Positions 14,559 to 38,515 are shown, numbered from the stretch's first letter. The stretch is 40,446 nt of DNA from an uncultured Gammaproteobacteria bacterium (GCA_964444295.1 CAYUGO010000002.1:1-40446), one strand, 5' to 3'. Translations and numbers: made by a program. Notes: generated from the letters alone by a model not told the origin.

Positions 14559-14639
14559 GGTACGAAATCATTTGGTGATTGTCTATTCTTGAGGGGAAAT
14601 GGGGGATATTTTTTAATAACTTGCTGGTATGATGTTGAT

Positions 14640-22517: not shown

Positions 22518-23417
22518 TTAGTTTGTGATGTTTATTGGTGTGGGGGTTTTTATTATTTTAGATTGTGGGTGAAGTTGATGGTAAGTTATTTTGTACAATA
22601 AATATACAACAAGAGTGGCAGATGTGACGGAAATTATTAAACTGAGAGTGAATGAAATAGGGGTGCTTTGGGGTGGAATCGGGATGTTTAAGAAGTGGCG
22701 TTGATGTGTAATGGCATTAGATAGTTGAGGATTATGAATGGATGTGGGAGTTGTGGAAATGGTGGGAGTGGTATTGAGGGTTGCTGCGAAAGTAGCGGTT
22801 AATGTTTCGGTCGGAATTGAGACAATCGGGGGAGATATTTGGGAAGGTGTATTGGAGGATGTGGTCGAAATATGGATAGACTGAGTAGGGGTGGGTGATG
22901 AGGGTGCTTGGATGTTGAGTTGAAGATTGTGAACTTCGTTAAGAATATCACCTTGGCCTGTGGTGACTGCGATGTTCGAATCGGTAGTTTGGCCAGAGAA
23001 GAAGATGATATCAAGATTGGTCGAGCCTGATTGGAGGGCTTTGAAATTTAGAGTTGCAAGAGTGTTTGTCCCGTTGAATTGTGAGTCCAGAGAGTTAGCG
23101 AAGGTTGAGATGTGAATAGTTCCGAGATCATTATCAAAATTTTTTTTAATAAAATTATCAAAAATTGTACCTTCTTCGATTGAAGTGATTTGAATAAACT
23201 GGGGATTAAATTTTATTTTGACACCTGCCCCTGCGGTTTCGTTTCCAGCGGTATCGAGGATGATATTTATTTGGGATGATTGTTCTACAATTGGATTTGG
23301 GGTGGAGGTAGTGAGACTGAATGAAGGACTTGCGGCAAGTGTTGGGAATGGATTAGTTAATGAATTAAGTAAGAGGGTGACAAGGATGATAATTGAGGAA
23401 GTTAGATGGAGTCGCAC
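22518..23417 (-). CDS. membrane-anchored cohesin-domain protein (candidate anchoring scaffoldin A)
   Basis: 299 aa with a GTG start. A signal peptide is followed by a cohesin-like module (INIILDTAGNETAGAGVKIKFNPQFIQITSIEEG...GTIHIS...LATLNFKALQSGSTNLDIIF...TDSNIAV). Then come a Ser/Thr/Pro linker, a C-terminal TM helix ISFTLSLIISVTSATLVVYLLY and a short tail. Confidence 0.7.
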   Translation of the reverse strand: MRLHLTSSIIILVTLLLNSLTNPFPTLAASPSFSLTTSTPNPIVEQSSQINIILDTAGNETAGAGVKIKFNPQFIQITSIEEGTIFDNFIKKNFDNDLGTIHISTFANSLDSQFNGTNTLATLNFKALQSGSTNLDIIFFSGQTTDSNIAVTTGQGDILNEVHNLQLNIQAPSSPTPTQSIHISTTSSNTPSQISPPIVSIPTETLTATFAATLNTTPTISTTPTSIHNPQLSNAITHQRHFLNIPIPPQSTPISFTLSLIISVTSATLVVYLLYKITYHQLHPQSKIIKTPTPINITN

Positions 23418-23448
23418 AGATATTGTTTATTATATAGATCAGTTTAAC

Positions 23449-24234
23449 TTAGTAAGTTGGAGGCACAGTGTTGTTCGTGTAAGGGGGAGAATCAGTAGGT
23501 GGAAGTGGGTTAGTTGGTGATTGATTATCAGTTTTGATGATGATTGTAGGTTCTTGAGGGGAAGTATTTTTGTTTTTGAGGAGTAAAAATAAAACAATAA
23601 TGGTGATGATAATGGCAGCAATTATAGATCCGATGATATAGATGAGATTATTGTTAGCTGAGTTGGTCATTGGAGGAGAAAGGGTTGTATCATCCGTGAC
23701 AGTTGTGTTAGCAATATTTGGATTAGGAGAGATAGAAACTGTGAGAGAGTTAGTGTATGCGAGGATATCTCCGTTGCCATATGTAACTGCGATATTGGAA
23801 TCTCTGGTGTTATTGGGAAGGTAGTTAAATTTGACGGTGGTTTGACCAACTGATTTAGATCGGAAAGTAATAGTTGCGAAACGGTCTATGCCTTGATATA
23901 GAGATTGAGAAGTAGGATCTTTGATACCAGAAATGGAGATAGTGCCTTTGGCATTATCGTATGTGGCATTTGGGTATGAGTCAAAAATAGGATATGTGTC
24001 TATTTTGGTAACTTCAAGATTGTTTTGGCTATAAAAAAGTTCTGCACCGACTCCAGCAACCTCTTGATTAGAGGTATCAATTCTGAGATCAACTGTGAAT
24101 GTTTCGTTGACAGTTGAATTAGTCTGGGTTGGTTCAAGTAAAAGGCTGGGGAGGTTGTTTTGGGCAAGAAGATTAGTACTGTGAAGGAATATAATACCTA
24201 GAGATAAAAAAAGAGAAAGTGCAATTTTATTCAT
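23449..24234 (-). CDS. membrane-anchored cohesin-domain protein (candidate anchoring scaffoldin B)
   Basis: 261 aa. A signal peptide is followed by a cohesin-like module (FTVDLRIDTSNQEVAGVGAELFYSQNNLEVTKID...GTISISG...FATITFRSKSVGQTTVKFNY...RDSNIAV). Then come the TM helix LIYIIGSIIAAIIITIIVLFLLL and a Pro-rich tail. Confidence 0.7.
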   Translation of the reverse strand: MNKIALSLFLSLGIIFLHSTNLLAQNNLPSLLLEPTQTNSTVNETFTVDLRIDTSNQEVAGVGAELFYSQNNLEVTKIDTYPIFDSYPNATYDNAKGTISISGIKDPTSQSLYQGIDRFATITFRSKSVGQTTVKFNYLPNNTRDSNIAVTYGNGDILAYTNSLTVSISPNPNIANTTVTDDTTLSPPMTNSANNNLIYIIGSIIAAIIITIIVLFLLLKNKNTSPQEPTIIIKTDNQSPTNPLPPTDSPPYTNNTVPPTY

Positions 24235-24255
24235 GATGACTGATTGAGAGAATAT

Positions 24256-25899
24256 TTATTGGAGAACGTCATCTTGTTTGTTCCAGTTGTCGCGCATGAT
24301 GGCGAAGTCTAGAGCATTGAGTTCTCCGCTGCGATCGAGATCGGCGAGACTATAGTTCTTAAAGAAGTTGGGAAGTACGTGGAGAGTGTAGTCAATTTCG
24401 TTAATCTCACCATCTTGATTGAAGTCGCCTCCGAGAAGCGGTGATTGAGTTAGATTGATAAGTTGTTCTTGGGCTGTGATATTAATGGGGTTGGTGTTTG
24501 TGCCGAATTTTTTGGCTAGGTAGCCTGGAGCTTTGACGGTGAATATATAATTACCTGAGGCTACATTGATTGATACTTGACCGTTAGTATTGGTTTGGGA
24601 TTGAACTTCGGAGGTTTGATTGTTGGACAGTTTTTTGATTTCGATGGTCACAGGTAGATTTTTGGCGATACCGGAGGTGATGCCTTTCCCTTGGAAATTA
24701 ACTTGGAGAGTTGCACTTAATGTGGGAACTGGAGTTGGTCCAGTGGTGGGTACGGCGGTGGGGATTGCTGTAGGAGCTGGTGTATTAGTCGGGGTAGGGG
24801 TTGGAACATTGCTAGGAACTGGAGTGGGGGTGTTGGTAGGAGCCAAGGTTGCTGTTGGAGCAGCAATTATAGTGATAGCTTGGTTATTAACTTGGGATAA
24901 AATATCAACAGGATTGTTACCGGCGTTGAATTTGACAAGGTTGCTGTCATTGGGGTTGTTAGGAGAAAATTGATAGTTGATTGGGGTTGAAGCAATGGTT
25001 TTGAGCGGTTGGAAGGTAATTCTGGCGAAGATCAAATTGTTGCCGATCGCTGGAGTTGGATTGGCAGAGGTGCCGATATTCGCTGCGATGTTAATTGTTC
25101 CAGCTGTGTTGTCGTAAGCTTTGACGGCATATGAGCTAAATGCTGATGGAGTTGATTGTTCTACGCTGATGACTTTGAGATATTGAGGATTGAAGGTTAT
25201 GTCGGCATCAACGGCACTTAATTGTTCACCTGCGGAATTGACAGTAGTTTCAACTGTGAAGTTTTGGTTGACTGTTTGGGGATTTGGTTTACTTAGATTA
25301 GTAAAGGCGAGAGTAGGAGTGTCTGTATTAACTACGATTTGACCATTAGTGGCTGACGCAAGAGTATTTTCGGCTTGGAGATTAGCTACAAGAGATGGTC
25401 TGTTTGAGGTAGTATCAATTACAAGGTCAGAGGTCCCCGCGGTTATTACTTGGTATGTAATATTTGCGACTGCACCAGGGACCACCCCACCATAGTTACT
25501 TCCAAGAGGGAATCCGATTGCATAACGGATGTCGCCGTTGCCGAAAGTTTTTTGAATTACGACAGGTGCACCCCCTGCTTGATTTTGGAAATCAGTGAAA
25601 AAATTACCTGGTTGGATGTCATTAATTTGGATTACTGAAGCATTATAAGTAAGATGAAGTTCAATTGAATTGACTTGATCGCCATTTGGATTAATGTTAA
25701 CGGCGAATGAAGCTGATTCTGCGAGGCGGGGGGTACTTTGGGCTGGCTGAATAGCAAGCACCGATTTACCTGTGGCAGCTTGAGTGTTAGTTCTGGTTGG
25801 AATACGAGAAAGGTAGATACTGACAGGAAGAGCCAGAAGAGCGACTGCTAGAATTATGTACTTTGATTTATTTTTGGTTAATGAGTTTGGGAAGTTCAT
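24256..25899 (-). CDS. secreted adaptor scaffoldin-like protein: two cohesin-like modules, PT linker, Ig-like (CarboxypepD_reg-like) module, C-terminal canonical dockerin
   Basis: 547 aa. Cohesin 1 spans ~aa 45-190 and cohesin 2 ~aa 195-345 (FTVETTVNSAGEQLSAVDADITFNPQYLKVISVE...GTINIAAN...FARITFQPL). The linker is APTNTPTPVPSNVPTPTPTNTPAPT. The dockerin is GDFNQDGEINEIDYTL...ADLDRSGELNALDFAIM (nt 24259-24432). Confidence 0.75.
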   Translation of the reverse strand: MNFPNSLTKNKSKYIILAVALLALPVSIYLSRIPTRTNTQAATGKSVLAIQPAQSTPRLAESASFAVNINPNGDQVNSIELHLTYNASVIQINDIQPGNFFTDFQNQAGGAPVVIQKTFGNGDIRYAIGFPLGSNYGGVVPGAVANITYQVITAGTSDLVIDTTSNRPSLVANLQAENTLASATNGQIVVNTDTPTLAFTNLSKPNPQTVNQNFTVETTVNSAGEQLSAVDADITFNPQYLKVISVEQSTPSAFSSYAVKAYDNTAGTINIAANIGTSANPTPAIGNNLIFARITFQPLKTIASTPINYQFSPNNPNDSNLVKFNAGNNPVDILSQVNNQAITIIAAPTATLAPTNTPTPVPSNVPTPTPTNTPAPTAIPTAVPTTGPTPVPTLSATLQVNFQGKGITSGIAKNLPVTIEIKKLSNNQTSEVQSQTNTNGQVSINVASGNYIFTVKAPGYLAKKFGTNTNPINITAQEQLINLTQSPLLGGDFNQDGEINEIDYTLHVLPNFFKNYSLADLDRSGELNALDFAIMRDNWNKQDDVLQ

Positions 25900-25939
25900 C
25901 TTTGTTTATTGTGGGTTTATTAGTTGGGGATTGCAAGGG

Positions 25940-26224
25940 TTATTTACCAAAACTTATAGACAAAATTGTATAGTCTAGGATATTTACTGCGTTATCACCA
26001 TTGAGATCAGCTTTGTGATTATTGGTTCCCATTTGGCTAGAAAGAAATGTGTAGTCGAGAATGTTGACTTTACCGTCACAATTATTGGTGTCTCCAATAA
26101 CAGGGCAAGGGGCAGATTGAATATTAGTAACAGGAAGAGTAGGCGTAGCCGCCGAAACAGTAGGGCTTGTAATGAAGGTTAAAATCAAAAATCCAGTAAT
26201 AATTGTGGCAAGTTTTATTTTCAC
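25940..26224 (-). CDS. secreted dockerin-only miniprotein (94 aa)
   Basis: GTG start. A signal peptide ending VSA-A and a short linker are followed by CPVIGDTNNCDGKVNILDYTFLSSQMGTNNHKADLNGDNAVNILDYTILSISFGK. There is no other domain. Confidence 0.6.
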   Translation of the reverse strand: MKIKLATIITGFLILTFITSPTVSAATPTLPVTNIQSAPCPVIGDTNNCDGKVNILDYTFLSSQMGTNNHKADLNGDNAVNILDYTILSISFGK

Positions 26225-26257
26225 AAGTTAATGTTAATCATATTAATATTGTGGTGT

Positions 26258-28846
26258 CTATAGGGAATTGCCAAAATTAGCCGAGAGGATAGAGTAATCA
26301 AGGACATTAATAACACCATCTTGTTTTAAATCAGCCTTAGTATCATTAGTACCAAATTTAGAAGATAGGTAGGTAAAATCTAGTGCATTAACCACATTGT
26401 CACAGAGGTTAGTATCCCCAATTAATGGACAAGGGCGATTAAGAGGTGTGGAAGTTGGCGTTGGAGAATTGGTGGGTGTTGGAGGAAGAGGAGTCGGGGT
26501 GGCGGATGGAAGATTAGAAGCAATTATTTTTACTGCTAAGTCGTCGCTTAGATTGGAGATGGGCAGAGTAATATTTCCTGTAGAGTTGGTAGTAAGGTTT
26601 TGGGTTTGGGTAATAGTTCCATTATAAGTATTCCACCATTGAACTATATAGTTTGAACTAGGAGTTAGTTTGGTAGTAATGGTTGATGATTGAGGGGTAC
26701 TGGTTTTGTTCCAGGTGTGGTCTGCATTTTGGATCCAAATATATGCTTTAGTGCCATCGGATTTTTTTTGTCCGTAAGTTCGGATTTTGGTGTTCGTAGA
26801 GGTCGTTTGGGCGTCATTGAATCCTCCGCGATTGAGATCTAAGTCATTTATGTAATTATAGAAAGGTTTGGTAATACTAGCTTTGCCGTTGGTGATTTTT
26901 TGGATGTGTTCGGTATCAAACCAGTAACCTGTGGCGAAGGCGGCTCCTCGGGTGAGCTGTGACCAGAGCATGTTGTGATACCATGTGCCTGAATTGGCGG
27001 AAGTTATTTTGGGATCGTTGAGCGGGTTCCACCATTCAGCAGTTGAGCTTAATCCATTTTCTGCCCAGATTAAAGGTTTGTTAGCATTTTTGGCGTAAGC
27101 GACTTCACCGACTTGTTTGACCCACTCGGCCATATCATAGGTATATGAGGAAGATGTGGTGTTGGGATTGCCGGAGTATTCATGGAGATCTAAGTAATCG
27201 ATGTCAGGATATTTGTTTTGAGAATTACTATAAAATGGAAAGCCGTCGTAGAGGGAGCAACACCAAAATGAAGTTGTTGAAAGAACGGGATGGGCGCTAA
27301 GATTTTTGGTATAATGGGCAAGATTTTCTTGAACATTTTGCCAGTGTGATATGTCGTTAGGGTTTGCCTCGTTGACCGCTTCCCATGAATGAACTGCGGT
27401 TGAGTATCCCCAGCGAGCAATAAGATAACGATACCACTGTCTTTTGAGCCAGCTGGATTTGGTATTGTAAGGTTGGTCGTAACCAGTACCTTGGAGCCAG
27501 CTGGCCCAGGTGCCGTTTTCGTTAAGACTACGGAAGATGGGATCGTTTTTGTCATGAACATTATATTTAAGATAAATTCCATTAGCTTCTGCTTGTTGGA
27601 CTTGCCAATCGAAAAAAGCAGCTGGCCGTTGTTCGACGTAGGTGTGCATATCGGCAGTCGGATTCCTGATAATTTCTGCGCCATTTTCTTTGATTGATAG
27701 TTCGTAGATATCGGCCTTGCCTCCTGTCACATTGTCAAGATAAACCCAGATGTCGCTGCCTGTTCCGGATGGAGTTGTAAATGAGGCTTGGAATGTTTGC
27801 CATCCGTTGGTACCTTGAGTTTGAGTAATATGGGAGAAAGGTTTAGGAGAATTTCTTAGGGTATTTTCTACAGTTTCATCAGTGGGATTGCCCCAGATAG
27901 GATTGCCAAATTTGATAACTAATCCATAAGGGTAGGAAGAATTTCGTGGACCTGTGATGTTGGTAGTTTTGGCGGATAACTTGATTTGATAATTAGTATT
28001 GGGTTTTATGGGAGTAAAAAATGATTCATCCATCCAACTGGTTAGCCAGTAGCGACTGGCGTTAGGATATTCTAAGTTGTAAGCAAGCCCATCGCTATTG
28101 GGATAGCGGTCTTGGAGAGAGTTCGTGAACGAGACTCTGGTTGAAATGCCTTCATTCCCGTGTTGCTCAGCTGAGGATTTCCAGCGGGCCCAGTTGGCAG
28201 AATATGCTCCTGAACCTCCCATCCAAGGTCGGACAAAGTTGAGTCCGGTGTCTTTGTATTTGGAAAAATCTTCGTCACTATAGATAGGTCCAATGGGCCA
28301 GAAGAGTTTACCGTTGGAGAATTCAAAATAGCGATTATCAGTCGGACTGACTTTGATAAATCCATCTTTGGTAGGGGTTGTGGCGGTAAAAGATCCGGCG
28401 TTGAAGGTGGTGATGCCTGAGGCGTCGGTGGCACGGATTTGAACATTAAAAGTACCTTGTTCTTGTGGACTGAATCTAATTACCCAGTATTTTTTGTTGG
28501 TTTCGGTAAATTTTAGACTACTGCCAGAACCTGATTTGGTAGTTTCGGTCATGTAGAATCCAGGGTGGGTCCAAGTTTTGCCGTTTGCAGTAAAAATTCC
28601 TTCAACTGTTATTCCAGTTTTGGGAGTAATTCCGGAAGGCGGAGTGGAATCATATTGAAAAAAATAATTACTGGCAGTAGTGGTTAAATCAAATTTGGCT
28701 TCGTATTTTTCGTAGACTTTGACGGAGGAAGTTGTGGAGGAAAAATTTGATATAACTGGCCCATTAGATTGGGCTAGAGTTGGTAGAGGAAAGAGAGCTA
28801 AGAGTAAAAGAATTGAGATAAAGAGGACAATTTTAATTTGGTTCAT
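26258..28846 (-). CDS. secreted clan GH-A (GH5-like) glycoside hydrolase with N-terminal Ig-like (DUF5060-like) module and C-terminal dockerin, copy 1
   Basis: 862 aa. WEAVNEANP is the NE acid/base motif, DLHEY is the H-x-Y motif, and PLIWAENG is the nucleophile Glu ~105 aa later. Then come the PT linker PTPLPPTPTNSPTPTSTP and the dockerin CPLIGDTNLCDNVVNALDFTYLSSKFGTNDTKADLKQDGVINVLDYSILSANFGNSL. The stop codon is TAG. Confidence 0.8.
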   Translation of the reverse strand: MNQIKIVLFISILLLLALFPLPTLAQSNGPVISNFSSTTSSVKVYEKYEAKFDLTTTASNYFFQYDSTPPSGITPKTGITVEGIFTANGKTWTHPGFYMTETTKSGSGSSLKFTETNKKYWVIRFSPQEQGTFNVQIRATDASGITTFNAGSFTATTPTKDGFIKVSPTDNRYFEFSNGKLFWPIGPIYSDEDFSKYKDTGLNFVRPWMGGSGAYSANWARWKSSAEQHGNEGISTRVSFTNSLQDRYPNSDGLAYNLEYPNASRYWLTSWMDESFFTPIKPNTNYQIKLSAKTTNITGPRNSSYPYGLVIKFGNPIWGNPTDETVENTLRNSPKPFSHITQTQGTNGWQTFQASFTTPSGTGSDIWVYLDNVTGGKADIYELSIKENGAEIIRNPTADMHTYVEQRPAAFFDWQVQQAEANGIYLKYNVHDKNDPIFRSLNENGTWASWLQGTGYDQPYNTKSSWLKRQWYRYLIARWGYSTAVHSWEAVNEANPNDISHWQNVQENLAHYTKNLSAHPVLSTTSFWCCSLYDGFPFYSNSQNKYPDIDYLDLHEYSGNPNTTSSSYTYDMAEWVKQVGEVAYAKNANKPLIWAENGLSSTAEWWNPLNDPKITSANSGTWYHNMLWSQLTRGAAFATGYWFDTEHIQKITNGKASITKPFYNYINDLDLNRGGFNDAQTTSTNTKIRTYGQKKSDGTKAYIWIQNADHTWNKTSTPQSSTITTKLTPSSNYIVQWWNTYNGTITQTQNLTTNSTGNITLPISNLSDDLAVKIIASNLPSATPTPLPPTPTNSPTPTSTPLNRPCPLIGDTNLCDNVVNALDFTYLSSKFGTNDTKADLKQDGVINVLDYSILSANFGNSL

Positions 28847-31418: not shown

Positions 31419-33778
31419 AGAGGAGTCGGGGTGGCGGATGGAAGATTAGAAGCAATTATTTTTACTGCTAAGTCGTCGCTTAGATTGGAGATGGGCAGAG
31501 TAATATTTCCTGTAGAGTTGGTAGTAAGGTTTTGGGTTTGGGTAATAGTTCCATTATAAGTATTCCACCATTGAACTATATAGTTTGAACTAGGAGTTAG
31601 TTTGGTAGTAATGGTTGATGATTGAGGGGTACTGGTTTTGTTCCAGGTGTGGTCTGCATTTTGGATCCAAATATATGCTTTAGTGCCATCGGATTTTTTT
31701 TGTCCGTAAGTTCGGATTTTGGTGTTCGTAGAGGTCGTTTGGGCGTCATTGAATCCTCCGCGATTGAGATCTAAGTCATTTATGTAATTATAGAAAGGTT
31801 TGGTAATACTAGCTTTGCCGTTGGTGATTTTTTGGATGTGTTCGGTATCAAACCAGTAACCTGTGGCGAAGGCGGCTCCTCGGGTGAGCTGTGACCAGAG
31901 CATGTTGTGATACCATGTGCCTGAATTGGCGGAAGTTATTTTGGGATCGTTGAGCGGGTTCCACCATTCAGCAGTTGAGCTTAATCCATTTTCTGCCCAG
32001 ATTAAAGGTTTGTTAGCATTTTTGGCGTAAGCGACTTCACCGACTTGTTTGACCCACTCGGCCATATCATAGGTATATGAGGAAGATGTGGTGTTGGGAT
32101 TGCCGGAGTATTCATGGAGATCTAAGTAATCGATGTCAGGATATTTGTTTTGAGAATTACTATAAAATGGAAAGCCGTCGTAGAGGGAGCAACACCAAAA
32201 TGAAGTTGTTGAAAGAACGGGATGGGCGCTAAGATTTTTGGTATAATGGGCAAGATTTTCTTGAACATTTTGCCAGTGTGATATGTCGTTAGGGTTTGCC
32301 TCGTTGACCGCTTCCCATGAATGAACTGCGGTTGAGTATCCCCAGCGAGCAATAAGATAACGATACCACTGTCTTTTGAGCCAGCTGGATTTGGTATTGT
32401 AAGGTTGGTCGTAACCAGTACCTTGGAGCCAGCTGGCCCAGGTGCCGTTTTCGTTAAGACTACGGAAGATGGGATCGTTTTTGTCATGAACATTATATTT
32501 AAGATAAATTCCATTAGCTTCTGCTTGTTGGACTTGCCAATCGAAAAAAGCAGCTGGCCGTTGTTCGACGTAGGTGTGCATATCGGCAGTCGGATTCCTG
32601 ATAATTTCTGCGCCATTTTCTTTGATTGATAGTTCGTAGATATCGGCCTTGCCTCCTGTCACATTGTCAAGATAAACCCAGATGTCGCTGCCTGTTCCGG
32701 ATGGAGTTGTAAATGAGGCTTGGAATGTTTGCCATCCGTTGGTACCTTGAGTTTGAGTAATATGGGAGAAAGGTTTAGGAGAATTTCTTAGGGTATTTTC
32801 TACAGTTTCATCAGTGGGATTGCCCCAGATAGGATTGCCAAATTTGATAACTAATCCATAAGGGTAGGAAGAATTTCGTGGACCTGTGATGTTGGTAGTT
32901 TTGGCGGATAACTTGATTTGATAATTAGTATTGGGTTTTATGGGAGTAAAAAATGATTCATCCATCCAACTGGTTAGCCAGTAGCGACTGGCGTTAGGAT
33001 ATTCTAAGTTGTAAGCAAGCCCATCGCTATTGGGATAGCGGTCTTGGAGAGAGTTCGTGAACGAGACTCTGGTTGAAATGCCTTCATTCCCGTGTTGCTC
33101 AGCTGAGGATTTCCAGCGGGCCCAGTTGGCAGAATATGCTCCTGAACCTCCCATCCAAGGTCGGACAAAGTTGAGTCCGGTGTCTTTGTATTTGGAAAAA
33201 TCTTCGTCACTATAGATAGGTCCAATGGGCCAGAAGAGTTTACCGTTGGAGAATTCAAAATAGCGATTATCAGTCGGACTGACTTTGATAAATCCATCTT
33301 TGGTAGGGGTTGTGGCGGTAAAAGATCCGGCGTTGAAGGTGGTGATGCCTGAGGCGTCGGTGGCACGGATTTGAACATTAAAAGTACCTTGTTCTTGTGG
33401 ACTGAATCTAATTACCCAGTATTTTTTGTTGGTTTCGGTAAATTTTAGACTACTGCCAGAACCTGATTTGGTAGTTTCGGTCATGTAGAATCCAGGGTGG
33501 GTCCAAGTTTTGCCGTTTGCAGTAAAAATTCCTTCAACTGTTATTCCAGTTTTGGGAGTAATTCCGGAAGGCGGAGTGGAATCATATTGAAAAAAATAAT
33601 TACTGGCAGTAGTGGTTAAATCAAATTTGGCTTCGTATTTTTCGTAGACTTTGACGGAGGAAGTTGTGGAGGAAAAATTTGATATAACTGGCCCATTAGA
33701 TTGGGCTAGAGTTGGTAGAGGAAAGAGAGCTAAGAGTAAAAGAATTGAGATAAAGAGGACAATTTTAATTTGGTTCAT
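31190..33778 (-). CDS. clan GH-A glycoside hydrolase with C-terminal dockerin, copy 2 (chimeric 3' end)
   Basis: The protein is identical to copy 1 except for the last ~70 aa. There the linker/dockerin (TNQPTP, LSRPCP, NDPKADL, GKTL) matches the SGNH gene's dockerin instead. Confidence 0.8.
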   Translation of the reverse strand: MNQIKIVLFISILLLLALFPLPTLAQSNGPVISNFSSTTSSVKVYEKYEAKFDLTTTASNYFFQYDSTPPSGITPKTGITVEGIFTANGKTWTHPGFYMTETTKSGSGSSLKFTETNKKYWVIRFSPQEQGTFNVQIRATDASGITTFNAGSFTATTPTKDGFIKVSPTDNRYFEFSNGKLFWPIGPIYSDEDFSKYKDTGLNFVRPWMGGSGAYSANWARWKSSAEQHGNEGISTRVSFTNSLQDRYPNSDGLAYNLEYPNASRYWLTSWMDESFFTPIKPNTNYQIKLSAKTTNITGPRNSSYPYGLVIKFGNPIWGNPTDETVENTLRNSPKPFSHITQTQGTNGWQTFQASFTTPSGTGSDIWVYLDNVTGGKADIYELSIKENGAEIIRNPTADMHTYVEQRPAAFFDWQVQQAEANGIYLKYNVHDKNDPIFRSLNENGTWASWLQGTGYDQPYNTKSSWLKRQWYRYLIARWGYSTAVHSWEAVNEANPNDISHWQNVQENLAHYTKNLSAHPVLSTTSFWCCSLYDGFPFYSNSQNKYPDIDYLDLHEYSGNPNTTSSSYTYDMAEWVKQVGEVAYAKNANKPLIWAENGLSSTAEWWNPLNDPKITSANSGTWYHNMLWSQLTRGAAFATGYWFDTEHIQKITNGKASITKPFYNYINDLDLNRGGFNDAQTTSTNTKIRTYGQKKSDGTKAYIWIQNADHTWNKTSTPQSSTITTKLTPSSNYIVQWWNTYNGTITQTQNLTTNSTGNITLPISNLSDDLAVKIIASNLPSATPTPLPPTPTNQPTPTSTPLSRPCPLIGDTNLCDNVVNALDFTYLSSKFGTNDPKADLKQDGVINVLDYSILSANFGKTL

Positions 33779-36350
33779 GGATATTAATTAATTACTTTGA
33801 TTTGAGAGGGATCGCTGATAATAATTTCTGGATCCTTGCCTTCAGGCCAGTATGGAGTGACATAACCTGAGATGATAACTTTTTTATTTAGAAAGGTCAT
33901 GGGGTCATAATTGAATTTGGATAAGTCTTTTTCAAAAATTCTAATTAATAAGGCTCCGTCGTGTGGATTTGTGAATCCTAGATATATTGCTTTGGGTCGA
34001 TGATTGACGGCTGACTTGATGGTTCCTTGGACTGTGACGTTTTGACCGATATATTTGGGGGCGTCCGTGTAGGAAATGGTTGGGAATTGAGAAGAATCAG
34101 CAGTTCCAAGAACTTGAGTATTTGGATTAGTTTGGGCTAAGGTTTGGTCAGACGTGTCTGAGGCAAGAGGATTGCCGTTGGTTAGAGCCATGATGGCCCC
34201 GTCGTTGGTTTTGACTAGAACTAGACCATCACTGACGACGGTATAGGGATCAGTTCCAGAGTTATTGTCATTGTGATATTCGTAGAAGCCTGGTGGATAG
34301 CTGCGTTGGTCTCCGTAAGAATAAAGACCTGCTTGGCAGTAACGAGTATTTGCGTTGAATGGGCAGTTGGATGGACCATAAGATGTGCCTGTACCGCCTG
34401 GGAAAATTTGGGGATTACATTGGGAATTGGTGGGTGGACAGTAAACTTGTCTCCAGATGACAAATGGAGCGTCAGAAGTTTTGATGGGATTGGTAAATGA
34501 TGCACCTAAGTTGGACGCGCGGTCGGTAATTTTTTTGGCTGAGTTAATGAGCCAATGACTATGGAAGATGGTGTCGCCTGACATAGCGATGTTCATCATT
34601 TCGTCGGTTTGAATGTCTGTGTAGCTGATAAACCTCATGTCACCTGTTGAATAGCCCGAGACTGTATTGTTATCGAGAACCATTTCGCCCATGGTGGCAT
34701 CTTCACGTCCATCGCACCAGCCCGTGCCACAAGCAAGTCCGTTGCGCCAGATTATGTAGGCTACTTCTTTGTCGTTAATAGTTTTGATGATCGGTTGAGG
34801 ACCCATTGGTAAGGTACCTCCGTCACCAGCACCGCCGTTGCCTACAGCAGGAACAAATGCTTGATTTCCTGTATCAAGGTTAAGTGGGAATAGTGCTTGA
34901 GCGCTTGGGGTTGATGCTAGAGCTGATTTGATTTGGCTATTAGTTGTGGGATATGGATTCCATGTCCAGAGAGAATCCCAGTCAAGCCGATAACGGATAA
35001 ATACTAAACCGTGTTGTTCAGCGATGACTGGCCATCCTTCTTCGGCTTGAGCTCCAGTTGAATTAAGTGTCCCTGACTGGTAATTACGGAGGGTTGGTTT
35101 TACTCGCCATTTGCGGGAGCCATCGGTGTTATTAATTGCATGAACATATAAATCTTGGGTTAGATAAATAAGGGCATTGCGAGATGGAGAGTATGAAACA
35201 GGAGTTGAACTTGGTGAATTACCTTGGTATTCCCAGACTTTGGTCATGAGATTTTTATCGACTTTGGTAAGGGTTCCAGATTGAGAAACGATGTAAATAG
35301 AGTTATCAACTAGCAAGGGTGTTAGATTGAGACTGGATGGAGCGGTGTAGGTTCTGGAGATTGAACCATTGGATGCATTAAGTTTGTATAGATTGTTGTT
35401 ATTTGAAGCAATATAAACGAATTCGTTATTGTAGATTGGGGTTGAGGTTAGATTTCCGAGTGAGTTGTTGGACCATAATACTTGGCCGTTGGCTTTGTTT
35501 AGAGCAAAGATAGTATTGTTGGCAACAGTATAGACTCGAGATCCGCCTGTAATTGGTTGGACTAGGGGAGGGGCGCTAAGATGATTAGCTTGTTTTTTCC
35601 CGTCAGATCCGGCGCCATTCCATTGCCAAAGATATTTCCAGGGGGTGGCTACTGTCTGGGGTGTATAACTTGTTCGTTGGGCGTTGTGTGCGAATTGAGT
35701 CCATTCGGTTGAACTAGTGGGACCTTGAGTTGGAGTAGGAGCGGGAGGAGTAGGTGAGTTAGTGGGAGCTGGGGTAGAAGTTGAGGGAGGTGAGGTTGGT
35801 CCGACTTTGCCAAAATTATTTGACAGAATAGTAAAGTCAAAAACATTGACATTATTATCTGAATTAAAATCTGCGCCTATATTATTGGAGCCGAAATTGG
35901 AAGAAAGATATGTAAAATCTAAGACATTAACTGTGTTGTTGCATGGTGGAGTGTCTCCTGGGAATGAACATCTAGTGCTGGTTTGGGCTTGGATTGTGAA
36001 TTTGGATGTAGATAGGCGAGGAAAATCAAAAATTAAATTGATTGAAATTAGTAGTAAAGATAATAGGATTAAGAGTTTCGTGTGATTCACTGATTTTATT
36101 ATATATATTAGTTGACATTAATTACAAAGTTTTACCAAAGTTAGCAGAGAGGATGGAGTAATCCAGGACATTAATAACACCATCTTGTTTTAAATCAGCC
36201 TTGGGATCATTAGTACCGAATTTGGAAGAGAGATAAGTAAAGTCTAGTGCATTAACTACATTATCACAGAGGTTAGTATCTCCGATTAGAGGACAAGGAC
36301 GAGACAGAGGAGTGGAAGTTGGGGTTGGTGAATTAGTGGGTGTTGGGGGA
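31419..36350. repeat. tandem direct repeat, unit 2 (4932 bp)
   Basis: As for unit 1. The only difference I found between the copies' flanking homologies is a dinucleotide at 31398-31399 (tg) versus 36330-36331 (ga). Confidence 0.9.
33784..36090 (-). CDS. PQQ-like beta-propeller protein with N-terminal dockerin, copy 2
   Basis: The 768-aa translation is identical to 28852-31158. Confidence 0.78.
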   Translation of the reverse strand: MNHTKLLILLSLLLISINLIFDFPRLSTSKFTIQAQTSTRCSFPGDTPPCNNTVNVLDFTYLSSNFGSNNIGADFNSDNNVNVFDFTILSNNFGKVGPTSPPSTSTPAPTNSPTPPAPTPTQGPTSSTEWTQFAHNAQRTSYTPQTVATPWKYLWQWNGAGSDGKKQANHLSAPPLVQPITGGSRVYTVANNTIFALNKANGQVLWSNNSLGNLTSTPIYNNEFVYIASNNNNLYKLNASNGSISRTYTAPSSLNLTPLLVDNSIYIVSQSGTLTKVDKNLMTKVWEYQGNSPSSTPVSYSPSRNALIYLTQDLYVHAINNTDGSRKWRVKPTLRNYQSGTLNSTGAQAEEGWPVIAEQHGLVFIRYRLDWDSLWTWNPYPTTNSQIKSALASTPSAQALFPLNLDTGNQAFVPAVGNGGAGDGGTLPMGPQPIIKTINDKEVAYIIWRNGLACGTGWCDGREDATMGEMVLDNNTVSGYSTGDMRFISYTDIQTDEMMNIAMSGDTIFHSHWLINSAKKITDRASNLGASFTNPIKTSDAPFVIWRQVYCPPTNSQCNPQIFPGGTGTSYGPSNCPFNANTRYCQAGLYSYGDQRSYPPGFYEYHNDNNSGTDPYTVVSDGLVLVKTNDGAIMALTNGNPLASDTSDQTLAQTNPNTQVLGTADSSQFPTISYTDAPKYIGQNVTVQGTIKSAVNHRPKAIYLGFTNPHDGALLIRIFEKDLSKFNYDPMTFLNKKVIISGYVTPYWPEGKDPEIIISDPSQIKVIN

Positions 36351-37312
36351 AGAGGAGTCGGGGTGGGAACAGTTGTGGGAGTTATACCTGCATTAGTGAG
36401 CATCTCGTATTGAGTAAAGGGAGTAATGTTTAGATTAAAATTGGTGTTAAATGGTTGAGTGAACCAAAGGTTGGCCATAAGCCCGTTGGCTACTGTTCCT
36501 AAGTGACCTGCGGTGTCTCCCAGACGAAAATGGTGTGGCTCATTGTTTTGGGCAAATACGTGTATTTTTTCTCCAGCAATGAGAATATCTCCTGAGCTAT
36601 CTAGTTTGGAAACTACATTAGCTGTCATCACTGTGTTTAGGTCAACGAAAACAATTCCATTTGCATCAGCTTTGGCTTCCCATGCGGTATTGATTGTGTT
36701 TATGGCATTTGTGACACGAGCGCGTTTGGTGGGATCAGGGTAGAGCATCGCAATGGGTGGAAAAATTCCTGGATCGCCAATGCTGGTCATGACGATTTGG
36801 GTGTTGCCAGCTTGTTTGATAATATCGATGGCTTGGTTCATCTTACTAATTATTTCGTTGACTTTGGTGTTGATGTTTACTGTATTGTTATAAACGCTGT
36901 CATAAGTTTGATTCCAAAAATTAAAGTCATTGACTCCTATATGAATAAATACGTATTTAACTTCTCCTGATCGGATTTGGCTTGCGAGTCCGGTTGCTTG
37001 ACCTGAATCAATGAGATCTCTAGTTAAATTGCCACTTTTGGACCAGTTGTATTTGTATCCAGTTCTTCGGTTATCGCTCCAAGTTCCCCATGGTCCGAAA
37101 TTGAGGTTTCTTTTCTTTACCAGCAGCTCCGCCCAATTGAAAGTAGTAGCTGCATATGTGCCACCTCTATTATCGTTTGCTCTGTATTCATCGGAGTTAC
37201 TATCGCTTAAGATGCCGATCCCTTCGTTGTTGTATGTGGCAAACGTTATAGATGGAAAAATAATTAAATTAAGGAGAGATAAAAATAATAATGTAGCAAG
37301 ATATTTTTTCAT
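36122..37312 (-). CDS. secreted SGNH/GDSL-type esterase with C-terminal dockerin
   Basis: I chose the start at MKKYLATLLFLSLLNLIIFPSITFA (signal peptide). The track ORF extends to GTG 37357. Block I is GILSDSNSDEY, block III is IHIGVNDF, and there is a distal DTAGH. Then come a PT linker and a dockerin whose DNA matches that of 31190-31436 at all but two adjacent positions (31398-31399). Confidence 0.72.
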   Translation of the reverse strand: MKKYLATLLFLSLLNLIIFPSITFATYNNEGIGILSDSNSDEYRANDNRGGTYAATTFNWAELLVKKRNLNFGPWGTWSDNRRTGYKYNWSKSGNLTRDLIDSGQATGLASQIRSGEVKYVFIHIGVNDFNFWNQTYDSVYNNTVNINTKVNEIISKMNQAIDIIKQAGNTQIVMTSIGDPGIFPPIAMLYPDPTKRARVTNAINTINTAWEAKADANGIVFVDLNTVMTANVVSKLDSSGDILIAGEKIHVFAQNNEPHHFRLGDTAGHLGTVANGLMANLWFTQPFNTNFNLNITPFTQYEMLTNAGITPTTVPTPTPLPPTPTNSPTPTSTPLSRPCPLIGDTNLCDNVVNALDFTYLSSKFGTNDPKADLKQDGVINVLDYSILSANFGKTL

Positions 37313-37379
37313 TTTTAAGCCTGTAATTACCTTAACATAGTTGGGGATGATTGGCACGTTTTTGGGTTGGAGTAATGGG

Positions 37380-37943
37380 TTACTTTAGATTTTGGAGAGC
37401 GTATTTGATTTGGTTTTCGAGAGTGGTTATTTCTGGTGGAATATTGTTGAGTATTTTTTGTATCTCATGTGATTTGTAACCTAAGCTAATTAGAGCATTA
37501 CCGAGTTCGCTTTCTTGGGTGTCTGATTGGAGATCTAGTTCGTTAAGTGAGCCAAGTTTGGTCTTGAGATCGACGATGATTTTCTGGGCACCTTTTTTGC
37601 CGACGCCGGAGATTTGGGTAAAGAAAGAAACGTCGGCCGTCATGATGGCTTGGATAGTTTGGGATGAAGGTTGGTTTAGAATGGCTAGTGCTATTTTGGG
37701 ACCAATGCCTGACACAGAAATGAGTTGGCGGAAGAGATCGCGGTCGGATAGGGAGTTAAATCCATAGAGTGTTAGTTGGTCTTCGCGGACGTGAGTGTGG
37801 ATGTGAAGTTGGGTTGGAGAATTGAGAATTAAATTAGAAAGAAGTGGTTGGGGAGCGTGGATTTCATATCCCACACCATTGACATCCAGAGTGAGGGTTT
37901 GGTTGGAGATAAGGATTACTTGCCCTTGGAGGTATGAGATCAT
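37380..37943 (-). CDS. ruvA: Holliday junction DNA helicase subunit RuvA
   Basis: 187 aa. It has the N-terminal OB MISYLQGQV...VNGVGYEI and two HhH motifs (VSGIGPKIALAIL, ISGVGKKGAQKII). Confidence 0.9.
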   Translation of the reverse strand: MISYLQGQVILISNQTLTLDVNGVGYEIHAPQPLLSNLILNSPTQLHIHTHVREDQLTLYGFNSLSDRDLFRQLISVSGIGPKIALAILNQPSSQTIQAIMTADVSFFTQISGVGKKGAQKIIVDLKTKLGSLNELDLQSDTQESELGNALISLGYKSHEIQKILNNIPPEITTLENQIKYALQNLK

Positions 37944-38035: not shown

Positions 38036-38515
38036 TTATCTTAAGGTAAAGGCGTGGGTGATGGCTGCGGCAAGGGCATCGGCGGCATCGTCTGGTTTGG
38101 GGACTTCTTGTAGCTTGAGGATTGATTTGACCATGAATTGGACTTGTTTTTTGTCGGCTCGGCCATAGCCAGTGATTGTTTGTTTGATTTGGAGGGGGGT
38201 GTATTCAAAGATAGGAATACCTGATTGTTTGGCAGCAAGTAGGAGGACTCCGCGGGCGTGACCTACCGACATGGCGGTTTTGGCATTGGTATTGAAAAAA
38301 AGTTTTTCGACTACGATGGCTTGGGGTTTGAATGTAGTAATTAATCTGGTGGTTTGGGTATGAATTTGGATGAGACGTTCGGCAAGATCGAGTTTGGGGA
38401 TGGTGGTGATGCAGTCGCAAGTAATATCAGAAAATGAACTTGGAGCAGTGTATGTAAGGAATCCCCAGCCAGTAAGAGCCGTGCCGGGATCAAAGCCAAG
38501 AATGCGAGTAGGCAT
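38036..38515 (-). CDS. ruvC: crossover junction endodeoxyribonuclease RuvC
   Basis: 159 aa. ILGFDPGTALTGWG, VVEKLFF, GYGRADKKQV and DAADALAAAITHA are present. Confidence 0.92.
   Translation of the reverse strand: MPTRILGFDPGTALTGWGFLTYTAPSSFSDITCDCITTIPKLDLAERLIQIHTQTTRLITTFKPQAIVVEKLFFNTNAKTAMSVGHARGVLLLAAKQSGIPIFEYTPLQIKQTITGYGRADKKQVQFMVKSILKLQEVPKPDDAADALAAAITHAFTLR

Follow-up and report, generated by a model that had tools for sequence, protein, structure and literature searches.

The closest described counterparts of the locus analysed here are the clostridial and ruminococcal cellulosomes, such as the CipA-OlpB/SdbA system of Acetivibrio thermocellus and those with the adaptor scaffoldins of A. 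cellulolyticus and R. flavefaciens. Jelly-roll cohesins, dockerins with duplicated loops and two orthogonal specificities are common to these systems and, as read from sequence, to our locus, and in both there are cohesin-bearing anchoring proteins and clustered scaffoldin and anchor genes. Outside cellulose degradation, cohesin-dockerin pairing assembles glycoside hydrolases or other secreted proteins, as in the GH84/GH33 toxin complexes of Clostridium perfringens and the pair of Archaeoglobus fulgidus, a further likeness to the locus; Peer et al. reportedly surveyed such non-cellulosomal systems in 2009. To our knowledge, systems of the C. perfringens or A. fulgidus type have no single operon that encodes both an adaptor scaffoldin and a separate tier of membrane-anchored cohesins.

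For CPR bacteria, cohesin/dockerin 'cellulosome' proteins of Ca. Shapirobacterales BG1-G2 (Microgenomates) have been detected by proteomics (bioRxiv 10.1101/2021.08.21.457207; PMC9123182), 'cellulosome' genes are recorded for Ca. Roizmanbacterium, also of the Microgenomates (Geesink et al. 2020, as cited in PMC9123182), and a 'two-subunit cellulosome' has been reported for the Saccharibacterium T. rhizospherense (bioRxiv 10.1101/211649). In the epibiont Southlakia, an envelope protein with a dockerin domain is essential. The earlier CPR 'cellulosomes' belong to the same superphylum as our locus and, for Shapirobacterales and Roizmanbacterium, to Microgenomates. The available text of those reports offers domain matches only, and describes neither a locus architecture, TM-anchored cohesins and two dockerin classes nor a conserved scaffoldin-anchor pair or a cargo set of GDSL, propeller and GH5-like proteins. 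The novelty claimed for the locus in the preliminary description therefore has to be narrowed: the idea of CPR cohesin-dockerin systems is already known and such proteins have been reported, although neither binding nor enzyme activity has been demonstrated for them there. The system proposed for the present locus is plausible and testable.

The window (the whole 40,446-nt stretch of DNA analysed) is assigned to a Patescibacteria (CPR) bacterium with a tiny genome, probably one of the Microgenomatia. Its extreme G/C strand disparity is typical of the Microgenomatia order UBA1400 and the related named loci are from Patescibacteria, in agreement with the small-genome host proposed before. Ten co-directional ORFs on the minus strand were verified at 22518-37357, between ruvB (44 nt away) and ruvA (22 nt away), with intergenic gaps of 31, 21, 40, 33, 5, 31, 5 and 31 nt within the cluster. 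Coordinates, strand and gaps of the 'ten consecutive genes' originally listed are correct; since a 4932-nt GH and propeller unit has recently been duplicated in tandem, the distinct genes number eight. They encode two TM anchors, one scaffoldin and dockerin-tagged cargo: two GH5-like hydrolases, two BamB/PQQ_2-type beta-propellers, an SGNH esterase and a 94-aa dockerin-only protein. Next to the locus, at 38522-40430, lie genes for type IV pilin-like and VWA proteins. The features, with modules as predicted, are as follows.

22518-23417, minus strand: anc299, membrane anchor; signal peptide, cohesin (aa 29-172, nt 22902-23333), S/T/P-rich linker (aa 173-252), C-terminal TM helix (aa 253-278), short tail
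23449-24234, minus strand: anc261, membrane anchor; signal peptide, cohesin (aa 28-172, nt 23719-24153), short linker, TM helix (aa 195-220, nt 23575-23652), 40-aa P/T-rich tail
24256-25899, minus strand: sca547, adaptor scaffoldin; N-terminal signal/anchor segment, cohesin 1 (nt 25312-25770), cohesin 2 (nt 24862-25311), PT linker (nt 24718-24861), Ig-like 'X' module (nt 24448-24717), class-S dockerin (nt 24277-24438)
25940-26224, minus strand: doc94, secreted 94-aa protein; signal peptide and class-E dockerin only
26258-28846, minus strand: GH862a; signal peptide, Ig-like DUF5060, GH5-like (beta/alpha)8 domain with a beta-sandwich insertion, C-terminal beta-sandwich, PT linker, class-E dockerin (nt 26261-26431)
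28852-31158, minus strand: PQQ768a; signal peptide, N-terminal class-E dockerin (nt 30874-31041), PT linker, BamB/PQQ_2-type propeller with Cys-rich insertions, small C-terminal domain
31190-33778, minus strand: GH862b, duplicate of GH862a
33784-36090, minus strand: PQQ768b, duplicate of PQQ768a, 100% identical
36122-37357, minus strand: GDSL411; signal peptide, SGNH/GDSL esterase, PT linker, class-E dockerin (nt 36125-36295)
26258-36121, no strand: tandem duplication of the propeller and GH unit, 2 x 4932 nt (26258-31189 and 31190-36121)
12645-14558, minus strand: p637, unlinked cargo; signal peptide, N-terminal class-E dockerin (nt 14289-14456), ~540 aa more

By hydropathy, an N-terminal hydrophobic segment is present in all ten proteins, which shows a predicted secretion signal on every locus product; a second, C-terminal TM segment is confined to anc299 (hydrophobic segments at aa 3-21 and 253-278) and anc261. 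These two had been described as anchors consisting of a signal peptide, one cohesin, a linker and a C-terminal TM helix, and Pfam, homology, AF2/Foldseek and hydropathy now agree on this. Searches with the Pfam Cohesin family (PF00963, GA 24.1 bits) place anc299 (32.3 bits) and two stretches of sca547 (42.3 bits) above threshold. The Pfam search gives no cohesin match for anc261, which is joined at the sequence level by BLASTP, to the cohesin of anc299 (31% identity, E 4e-22) and to cohesin 2 of sca547 (E 1e-12). The AF2 model of anc261, whose cohesin is the only one of the four that was modelled, has a pLDDT of 90-97 between aa 30 and aa 170, and DSSP assigns it 11 strands. Its top 40+ Foldseek matches, C. 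perfringens structures among them, are cohesins without exception, led by 1g1k_A (E 7e-10, TM 0.80, rmsd 2.6 Å), so that the jelly-roll, nine-stranded in cohesins, on which the cohesin assignment had been staked beforehand was recovered. In both anchors the C-terminus is formed by a TM helix and then a tail of 20-40 aa, and neither SLH domains (Pfam) nor an LPXTG motif were found in the locus products, as expected from the proposal of TM anchoring in place of the SLH repeats or sortase signals of cellulosomes. The sister strain has an anc299 ortholog (62% identical) that likewise adjoins ruvB.

For sca547, the architecture first ascribed to it (two cohesins, PT linker, Ig-like module and a C-terminal dockerin of its own) is supported by cohesins and a dockerin above the Pfam GA (Dockerin_1, 24.6 bits). 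Run against the PDB, a profile built from the scaffoldin alignment picks up CohA2 of C. acetobutylicum (E 3e-5) as well as the type I dockerin of CelS (E 1e-3). At E<=1e-30 the scaffoldin family comprises 130 representatives, of which many cover the full length. In every scaffoldin homolog a conserved ~90-aa module (aa 395-484) stands immediately before the class-S dockerin, an arrangement that we liken to the cellulosomal X-Doc dyad; the module's Ig-like match in the PDB is non-significant (E 0.013). No CBM was found on sca547 by family-profile searches. The cohesins of anc299 and anc261 and cohesin 2 of sca547 are mutually 32-34% identical, with cohesin 1 an outlier at ~20%; by sequence, the anchor cohesins fall with cohesin 2 and do not make up a type of their own. 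The N-terminus of sca547 may be an uncleaved signal-anchor, in which case the geometry of the complex would differ.

Judged by their profiles, the dockerins form two sharply separate classes, S in the scaffoldin and E in the cargo. A class-E HMM gives 103-124 bits for class-E members vs. 19 bits for the scaffoldin dockerin, and a class-S HMM exceeds 90 bits for scaffoldin-type proteins only. With Dockerin_1 (PF00404, gathering threshold 22.9 bits), doc94 (31.2 bits) and sca547 pass, whereas five cargo dockerins score below GA (GH862a/b 21.0 and 19.4, GDSL411 19.2, PQQ768 18.1 and p637 17.0 bits), despite their high scores on the class HMM. These sub-threshold dockerins (GH862a/b, PQQ768a/b, GDSL411 and p637) are 53-71% identical to doc94-type dockerins. 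The earlier listing of the two propellers, the esterase, the dockerin-only protein and p637 as dockerin proteins is backed by the class HMM and, for propellers and esterase, by their own profiles, with the caveat that most of the dockerins are below the Pfam GA. A canonical dockerin consists of a ~22-residue segment present twice in tandem, in which an EF-hand-like Ca2+ loop with D/N at positions 1, 3, 5, 9 and 12 leads into a helix. Both Ca2+ loops of class S are canonical by sequence (DFNQDGEINEID and DLDRSGELNALD). Loop 1 of class E, CPxxGDTNxCDxxVNxxD, is non-canonical: with 13 residues it is one longer, and it is flanked by two invariant Cys, which distinguishes the cargo dockerins from those of cellulosomes. 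Loop 2 is canonical in doc94 and PQQ768 and has Lys at position 3 in GH862, GDSL411 and p637. Given the unusual loop 1 and the Lys in several second loops, the Ca2+ dependence and fold of class E are putative; in the AF2 model of GH862, the dockerin has helices at aa 821-829 and 848-857 (pLDDT ~87-93). Within a genome the class-E dockerins are near-identical (homogenised), and between genomes they are lineage-specific.

Turning to the cargo, GH862 is predicted to be a GH5-like retaining glycosidase of clan GH-A, as had been claimed for both copies. N492, E493, H555, Y557, E596 and W628 are invariant across 42 homologs and make up the clan signature, with the Asn-Glu acid/base of strand 4, the His-x-Tyr of strand 6, the nucleophilic Glu of strand 7 and the Trp of strand 8. 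The best match by both sequence and fold is the GH5 beta-mannanase ManDH5 of Dictyoglomus thermophilum (PDB 9gmj/9gpa/9gpe), which has the same order of DUF5060, (beta/alpha)8 barrel and C-terminal beta-sandwich: phmmer gives a whole-length match to 9gmj (E 1e-12) in which E493 aligns with the acid/base E303, and Foldseek with the AF2 model (pLDDT 89.9) ranks ManDH5 first (E 6e-34, TM 0.77), followed by GH140 and GH5 structures. This tentatively points to a beta-linked, mannan- or hemicellulose-like substrate, at an identity of just 16-17% and with GH862 adding a ~200-aa beta-sandwich insertion (aa ~235-390) and the dockerin. The DUF5060 score (26.9 bits) is just under GA (27.2). PQQ768 matches Pfam PQQ_2 (61.7 bits) and BamB in the PDB (~E 1e-12). 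A PQQ-dependent dehydrogenase was considered and rejected, because TIGR03075 gives just 26.3 bits vs. a cutoff of 480 and the best matches are BamB-type propellers; nothing in the profile or PDB matches points to a quinoprotein. Natural GH-propeller fusions occur in three proteins (P0021, P0040 and P0058), the first and last of which join a PQQ768-type propeller to the GH862 family; the BamB-type propeller is a conserved partner of the GH862-type glycosidase. GDSL411 exceeds the GA of both Lipase_GDSL_2 (42.9 bits vs. 32.9) and Lipase_GDSL (39.3 bits vs. 23.6). Judging by start-codon context, the ATG at 37312 is a likelier start for this gene than the GTG at 37357; its orthologs in the sister strain and in the related locus L004 are 72% and 35% identical. 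In the sister strain doc94 is kept directly upstream of the scaffoldin (71% identity). The dockerin of p637 reaches 112 bits with the class-E HMM and 28.7 bits with NCBIfam dockerin_GC (cutoff 29), and for the ~540 aa beyond it profile and PDB searches gave no family or PDB match.

The two 4932-nt copies differ by 36 mismatches, all at 26258-26483. GH862b equals GH862a save for the 3' 226 nt, and its last ~208 nt, encoding the dockerin, are identical to the 3' end of the GDSL gene, with a crossover at about 31400-31415. The duplication is very recent, and its junction shows an origin by unequal recombination between the dockerin-coding repeats of the GDSL and GH genes. Such repeats would serve as recombination substrates, shuffling and amplifying cargo genes, a reading drawn from the 4.9-kb duplication together with the differing cargo order of the sister strain.

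Synteny, proposed earlier as a check, speaks for a functional scaffoldin-anchor pair: at least nine distinct divergent loci have an anchor cohesin directly after the scaffoldin, the named ones all from Patescibacteria. L004 also repeats the cargo order (GDSL-dockerin, then dockerin-CBM6/35-propeller, then DUF5060-GH-dockerin and, further on, scaffoldin and anchor), with orthologs of GDSL, propeller and GH at E 2e-36, 1e-109 and 2e-42; its propeller, which carries the CBM6/35, is 38% identical to PQQ768 over 656 aa. In distant loci the scaffoldin has a single anchor downstream, which is of the anc261 type, and all eight such anchors (8/8) share the layout of signal peptide, cohesin, linker, TM helix and basic tail. 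Across lineages, identity amounts to 58-68% for the class-S dockerin and 33-46% for the anc261-type cohesin; of the modules, cohesin 1 evolves fastest.

With four cohesins, two dockerin classes, TM anchors, clan GH-A hydrolase, SGNH esterase and PQQ_2-type propeller all confirmed at the level of family or fold, we think it likely, with some reservation, that the locus encodes a membrane-anchored, cell-surface cohesin-dockerin assembly system, cellulosome-like in logic but not a cellulosome. The proteomic detection of cohesin and dockerin proteins in the related Shapirobacterales also speaks for this reading. A cellulosome in the strict sense was rejected: sca547 carries no CBM, family profiles found neither GH9 nor GH48 in the window, SLH and LPXTG are absent, and the cargo comprises a mannanase-like GH5, a propeller and an SGNH esterase. 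The 'complete cellulosome-like parts list' accordingly holds for the cohesin-dockerin parts and fails for a cellulose-binding CBM and GH9/GH48 cellulases. Compared with cellulosomes, the scaffoldin has two cohesins only and no CBM3, GH9/GH48/GH5 cellulases are missing, and the host is an ultra-small Patescibacteria bacterium. We infer a three-tier wiring in which the class-E cargo dockerins would plug into the scaffoldin cohesins, above all cohesin 1, and the class-S dockerin with its preceding Ig-like module into the TM-anchored cohesins, above all those of the anc261 type. By predicted topology, each TM helix holds an S/T/P-rich stalk presenting one cohesin, and the outcome would be a two-interaction, three-tier complex on the outside of the membrane, projecting through the wall. 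There, esterase and glycosidase could act in concert to deacetylate and depolymerise a beta-linked mannan- or hemicellulose-like extracellular glycan, allowing a cell of little biosynthetic capacity to harvest sugars.

The similarity of the cohesins of anc299, anc261 and cohesin 2, with cohesin 1 standing apart, means that cargo could dock straight onto the anchors. In such a flat or branched wiring, class-E cargo would bind the TM-anchored cohesins and cohesin 2 alike, and the scaffoldin would just provide more places to dock; alternatively, scaffoldins would link into chains, the class-S dockerin of one binding cohesin 1 of the next, or class S would have some other partner. Small extra adaptors with a cohesin and a dockerin, of class S in L001 (4339-5631) and class-E-like in L012 and L015, fit this arrangement and make more complex networks possible. 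We nevertheless consider it unlikely, as scaffoldin and anchor are adjacent in every locus, even in L005, L012 and L001 where cargo genes are not nearby, and as the class-S dockerin and anc261-type cohesin are conserved while cargo dockerins and cohesin 1 diverge together. That the modules form no complex at all, being unpaired stalk/Ig-like and EF-hand-like stabilising domains in a cluster of ordinary secreted proteins with a duplication inflated by assembly, strikes us as highly improbable. Five dockerins are below the Pfam GA and loop 1 of class E is degenerate, and non-cellulosomal cohesin and dockerin modules are reportedly common and mostly lack a demonstrated partner, according to Peer et al. 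in 2009. All component types nevertheless lie in one operon-like cluster with a scaffoldin-anchor adjacency that recurs elsewhere, the dockerins form two discrete classes with class E homogenised within the genome, and the anc261 fold is nearest to dockerin-binding type I cohesins; moreover, the duplication junction needs a real join of GH body and GDSL dockerin, impossible by collapsing or looping an unduplicated locus.

The complex could also be mainly a device for host interaction, attaching an episymbiont to its host or trimming glycans of the host envelope or capsule, instead of breaking down polysaccharide from the environment. CPR bacteria are typically episymbionts, the essential Southlakia protein has been proposed to target host glycans, doc94 is a dockerin with no enzyme, and the pilin-like and VWA genes lie nearby. 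The GH862 family, however, is widespread in free-living Chloroflexi together with PKD/CBM_4_9 modules typical of environmental glycan degraders, the L004 propeller bears a CBM6/35, and the nearest characterised relative of GH862 is a beta-mannanase; peptidoglycan hydrolase, lectin and adhesin domains are absent from the family-profile matches of the locus. A primary role in host interaction therefore seems to us rather improbable, and we retain the surface assembly system with three-tier wiring as the preferred reading.

A broader view, which we regard as possible though doubtful, is that the scaffoldin (two cohesins, X module and class-S dockerin) and the TM-anchored cohesin constitute a lineage-wide, Microgenomatia-type surface platform, a membrane-anchored 'minimal cellulosome' whose cargo plugs evolve fast and recombine for enzyme swap and amplification, those of the present locus being possibly a disulfide-braced, Ca2+-independent variant. 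If true, this would provide a new set of orthogonal cohesin-dockerin pairs for synthetic biology, and for the bacteria themselves the platform might be the main route to sugars, or to gripping and digesting the glycans of partner cells.

The run at 22518-37357 that the preliminary description read as ten co-directional genes does consist of ten successive ORFs, all on the minus strand and spaced 5-40 nt apart, but these represent eight distinct genes, because 26258-31189 and 31190-36121 are tandem duplicates.

Features in and around the locus
1130-2029, minus strand: tyrosine recombinase (Phage_integrase and SAM-like; XerC/D-like)
12645-14558, minus strand: p637, unlinked cargo protein with a class-E dockerin
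14589-16469, plus strand: ATP-dependent DNA ligase
21454-22473: ruvB, one locus boundary, 44 nt from the run
22518-23417, minus strand: anc299, TM-anchored cohesin protein, cohesin at aa 29-172
23449-24234, minus strand: anc261, TM-anchored cohesin protein, cohesin at aa 28-172
24256-25899, minus strand: sca547, adaptor scaffoldin (cohesin 1 at aa 44-196, cohesin 2 at aa 197-346, PT linker, Ig-like module and class-S dockerin together at aa 395-547)
25940-26224, minus strand: doc94, dockerin-only protein
26258-28846 and 31190-33778, minus strand: GH862a and GH862b, hydrolases with class-E dockerins
28852-31158 and 33784-36090, minus strand: PQQ768a and PQQ768b, beta-propellers with class-E dockerins
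36122-37357, minus strand: GDSL411, esterase with a class-E dockerin
37380-37943: ruvA, the other boundary, 22 nt from the run
38036-38515: ruvC, beyond ruvA
38522-40430, minus strand: weakly VWA-like secreted protein (Pfam VWA/VWA_2 scores sub-threshold) and a protein with a prepilin-type N-methylation motif, directly past ruvC

The listed GTG start of GDSL411 at 37357 places 15 extra residues ahead of a typical MKKY... signal peptide; translation more probably starts from the ATG at 37312. A scan for promoters and terminators returned counts no higher than the shuffled expectation and carries no information on operon structure.

The cohesin-like modules claimed earlier are borne out. Pfam Cohesin matches anc299 (32.3 bits, gathering score 24.1) and two stretches of sca547 (42.3 bits). 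For anc261, the Pfam search gave no cohesin match and phmmer against PDB sequences found nothing relevant; its module is supported by homology to the anc299 cohesin (31% identity over 169 residues, E 4e-22) and to cohesin 2 of sca547 (E 1e-12), and by structure prediction. The AlphaFold2 model is a beta-sandwich of pLDDT 90-97 with a TM helix predicted at residues 195-220, and its top Foldseek matches in the PDB are exclusively cohesins, the best being C. cellulolyticum 1g1k_A (E 7e-10, target-normalised TM 0.80, rmsd 2.6 A). With a profile from the scaffoldin alignment, the cohesin 1 region matches C. acetobutylicum CohA2 (E 3e-5) and the C-terminus the CelS type I dockerin (E 1e-3). Hydropathy agrees with the proposed export signals and membrane anchors, in that 10 of 10 products have an N-terminal hydrophobic segment and anc299 and anc261 alone have an additional C-terminal one. 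The cohesins of anc299, anc261 and cohesin 2 are 32-34% identical to one another, and cohesin 1 is ~20% identical to each of them; by pairwise identity, the four cohesins are thus not divided into 'anchor' and 'scaffoldin' groups.

The dockerin calls stand outright for doc94 and sca547, which exceed the Pfam Dockerin_1 cutoff of 22.9 (31.2 and 24.6 bits). Those of GH862a/b, PQQ768a/b, GDSL411 and p637 score 17-21 bits, below the cutoff, yet they share 53-71% identity with doc94-type dockerins and reach 103-124 bits with an HMM made from class E itself. The two halves of class E follow the patterns C-P-x-x-G-D-T-N-x-C-D-x-x-V-N-x-x-D-[FY]-[TA]-[YF]-[LI]-S-S-x-[FM]-G and A-D-[LFV]-[NK]-x-D-[GN]-x-[VI]-N-[IV]-[LF]-D-[YF]-[TS]-[IV]-[LF]-S-x-x-F-G. 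The scaffoldin dockerin, class S (LLGGDFNQDGEINEIDYT...ADLDRSGELNALDFAIMRDNW), has two canonical EF-hand-like loops and scores only 19 bits with the class-E HMM, and a class-S HMM exceeds 90 bits for scaffoldin-type proteins only in all loci examined. Judged by these scores, classes E and S are sharply separate. Loop 1 of class E is one residue over the canonical length and is flanked by two invariant cysteines, which may act as a disulfide brace. Since cargo dockerins of other lineages have ordinary duplicated loops (e.g. L015, DINGDGVVNILDF...DLNGDGVVDILDF), the Cys-flanked loop is a derived trait of the window lineage and its sister strain.

How widely is this arrangement conserved? Close relatives of the scaffoldin are few in a word-indexed database; an exhaustive profile search at E<=1e-30 gave 130 representatives (50%-identity clusters), of which many are 536-606 aa long and match the profile end to end. 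Scaffoldin loci from genomes and metagenomes, when titled, are labelled 'Patescibacteria group bacterium'. The exception in label, L003 (CAZCUC010000005.1), is named 'uncultured Pseudomonadales bacterium'; its GC skew is -0.26, and its scaffoldin/anchor locus, which has beta-helix-dockerin cargo, is of the Patescibacteria type. The bin is probably mislabelled or contaminated. Checking synteny in related genomes, as had been proposed, showed that in every locus with sufficient flank the scaffoldin gene is directly followed by one for a small protein consisting of signal peptide, cohesin, linker, TM helix and basic tail (the sister strain, comprising L002 and L007-L010; L001, L003 and L016; L004 (= L018) and L005; L011/L012/L014; L013 and L015). 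This anchor is of the anc261 type (33-46% identity), and anc299 is an additional paralog common to the window and sister strain only. In the anchors of L001, L003, L015 and L016 (e.g. L003 11019-11957), a short conserved linker motif, P-[IL]-x-[SR]-Q-x-P-I-T-D-P, lies just ahead of the TM helix; it is absent from anc299 and anc261 and could be a processing or wall-contact site.

Adjacent cargo genes, where present, lie upstream of the scaffoldin. L004 encodes GDSL-dockerin, dockerin-CBM6/35-propeller, DUF5060-GH-dockerin, PD40-dockerin and fn3-dockerin proteins, the first three being orthologs of GDSL411 (E 2e-36), PQQ768 (38% over 656 aa, E 1e-109) and GH862 (E 2e-42) in the same order as in the window. 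In L003 the cargo comprises three beta-helix proteins and one DUF4434 protein, each with a dockerin, and in L005, L001 and L012 the scaffoldin-anchor pair sits among housekeeping genes. Across lineages the most conserved module is the class-S dockerin (58-68% identity) and the least conserved is cohesin 1, which BLAST detects in L001 only; cargo dockerins are lineage-specific, yet near-identical inside each genome. Such rate differences are what would be expected of two orthogonal interfaces, a conserved one from scaffoldin to anchor and a fast, concertedly evolving one from cargo to scaffoldin, although they do not prove the wiring. Extra small adaptors also occur, combining a cohesin-like module with a cargo-type dockerin (L012 9023-9913, Pfam Dockerin_1 31.1 bits; L015 244-1749) or a cohesin with a class-S dockerin (L001 4339-5631); in other lineages the network of docking interactions may include further tiers. 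A Fic/DOC-family gene (11560-12639, plus strand) abuts p637, and in L012 a Fic gene (12918-13952) lies immediately downstream of the anchor cohesin; both proximities may be coincidence.

The position and the duplicated content of the locus each invite another explanation. The genes ruvA and ruvB are normally adjacent, and here a 15-kb locus separates them, as a mobile element might. Against such an origin, the locus has no flanking integrase or repeats, the sole integrase-like gene (1130-2029) lies at a distance of 20 kb, and the locus is placed alike in the sister strain (anchor-ruvB-pth-...-ATPase). The neighbours are chromosomal housekeeping genes (FtsH, 5'-3' exonuclease, Fpg, RecF, ATP-dependent DNA ligase, P-type ATPase, Pth and RuvABC), together with a pilin-like protein. 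The two 4932-nt duplicates differ by 36 mismatches, all within 26258-26483. An assembly artefact is unlikely: GH862b is identical to GH862a upstream of offset ~226, and its terminal 208 nt match the 3' end of the GDSL gene exactly, a hybrid GH-body/GDSL-dockerin junction that requires real DNA and that mis-assembly of an unduplicated locus could not create. Such a duplication is expected if the GDSL and GH genes underwent unequal homologous recombination through their dockerin-coding 3' ends. In the sister strain, whose dockerins share up to 92% identity with the window's, the cargo order is propeller, an unrelated 511-aa dockerin protein, GDSL, doc94 and scaffoldin. Together with the duplication, this differing order suggests that dockerin-coding repeats drive cargo shuffling and amplification.

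For the cargo itself, the calls of an SGNH esterase and PQQ-like beta-propellers agree with Pfam (GDSL411, Lipase_GDSL_2, 42.9 bits; PQQ768, PQQ_2, 61.7 bits). The propeller is BamB-type, and a role as quinoprotein dehydrogenase was rejected since the corresponding models score far under threshold. GH862 scores 26.9 bits with DUF5060, slightly under the 27.2 cutoff; its assignment to clan GH-A is upheld by a six-residue signature (N492, E493, H555, Y557, E596 and W628) that is invariant in an alignment of 42 homologs. The protein matches PDB 9gmj over its whole length (E 1e-12), with E493 (motif WEAVNE) aligned to E303, the position altered in the deposited E303Q complexes. Foldseek describes 9gmj as ManDH5, a GH5 beta-mannanase of Dictyoglomus thermophilum, and returns it as top match of the GH862 AlphaFold2 model (pLDDT 89.9; E 6e-34, TM 0.77), followed by a Bacteroides putative GH, GH140 apiosidases and GH5 structures. 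GH862 shares just 16-17% identity with ManDH5 and has an additional beta-sandwich insertion, so its substrate specificity may be a different one. A family search gave 174 matches, including many from Chloroflexi (Anaerolineae, Chloroploca) and other bacteria with PKD and CBM_4_9 modules and one labelled Micrarchaeia (DPANN archaea), which suggests exchange of this enzyme type between free-living degraders and ultra-small lineages. Three family members (P0021, P0040 and P0058) are natural ~1400-aa fusions of a GH862-type hydrolase, a dockerin-like segment and a PQQ768-type propeller, the last 34-36% identical to PQQ768 over 535-604 residues (E 7e-99 and 3e-71). By this Rosetta-stone evidence the propeller is a conserved functional partner for the hydrolase, consistent with their co-duplication in the window and adjacency in L004. 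The combination of an SGNH esterase, a GH5-like hydrolase and a CBM-associated propeller points to a glycan resembling hemicellulose or mannan that would be deacetylated and depolymerised.

The plus strand of the window contains 28.6% G and 12.7% C whatever the gene orientation (GC skew ~0.39; 0.23-0.53 in 2-kb windows), and third-codon C is 3-5% in plus-strand genes vs. 29-37% in minus-strand genes. The richness of the locus proteins in T, S, P, N and Q, including their 'S/T/P linkers', is therefore partly due to strand skew. A comparable disparity was reported for Ca. Chazhemtobacterium aquaticus (29.83% C, 14.97% G) and also occurs in Collierbacteria and Beckwithbacteria, all of the order UBA1400 in Microgenomatia, for which unidirectional replication was proposed (PMC7143001). 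Several scaffoldin-bearing relatives have comparable skew. From the disparity and the titles of related contigs, we infer a Microgenomatia, UBA1400-like affiliation.

The locus follows on a small scale the working logic of a cellulosome with an adaptor scaffoldin. Of the cellulosome-like parts list proposed earlier, the cohesins, dockerins and anchors hold, whereas a cellulosome proper is not encoded, as the locus is without CBM3, cellulases and SLH or sortase anchoring. We consider a real surface cohesin-dockerin complex reasonably probable; a three-tier model, in which cargo would dock onto the scaffoldin and the scaffoldin onto the anchors, is the best-supported reading, with its exact wiring held less firmly. 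Cohesin/dockerin 'cellulosome' components in CPR are already known: they have been reported as expressed in Ca. Shapirobacterales (bioRxiv 10.1101/2021.08.21.457207 / PMC9123182), cited for Ca. Roizmanbacterium (PMC9123182) and described as a 'two-subunit cellulosome' in a Saccharibacterium (bioRxiv 10.1101/211649). An essential dockerin protein exists in Southlakia. Our literature search found no description of a conserved pair of scaffoldin and TM-anchored cohesin, nor of the two dockerin classes, the Cys-flanked cargo dockerin, the GDSL/propeller/GH5-like trio or dockerin-mediated duplication.

CPR/Patescibacteria account for a large part of all bacterial diversity and, to our knowledge, carbon acquisition and partner interaction of their tiny cells are mostly unexplained. 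The locus is a compact, self-contained cohesin-dockerin system with four cohesins, two dockerin classes and three enzyme types, and its dockerin-mediated recombination provides an example of how a modular locus diversifies. If the pairings hold, they would define a conserved trio of SGNH esterase, propeller and GH5-like hydrolase, offer new orthogonal interaction modules, and mean that cellulosome-style assembly works in ultra-small bacteria in a membrane-anchored, non-cellulolytic form.
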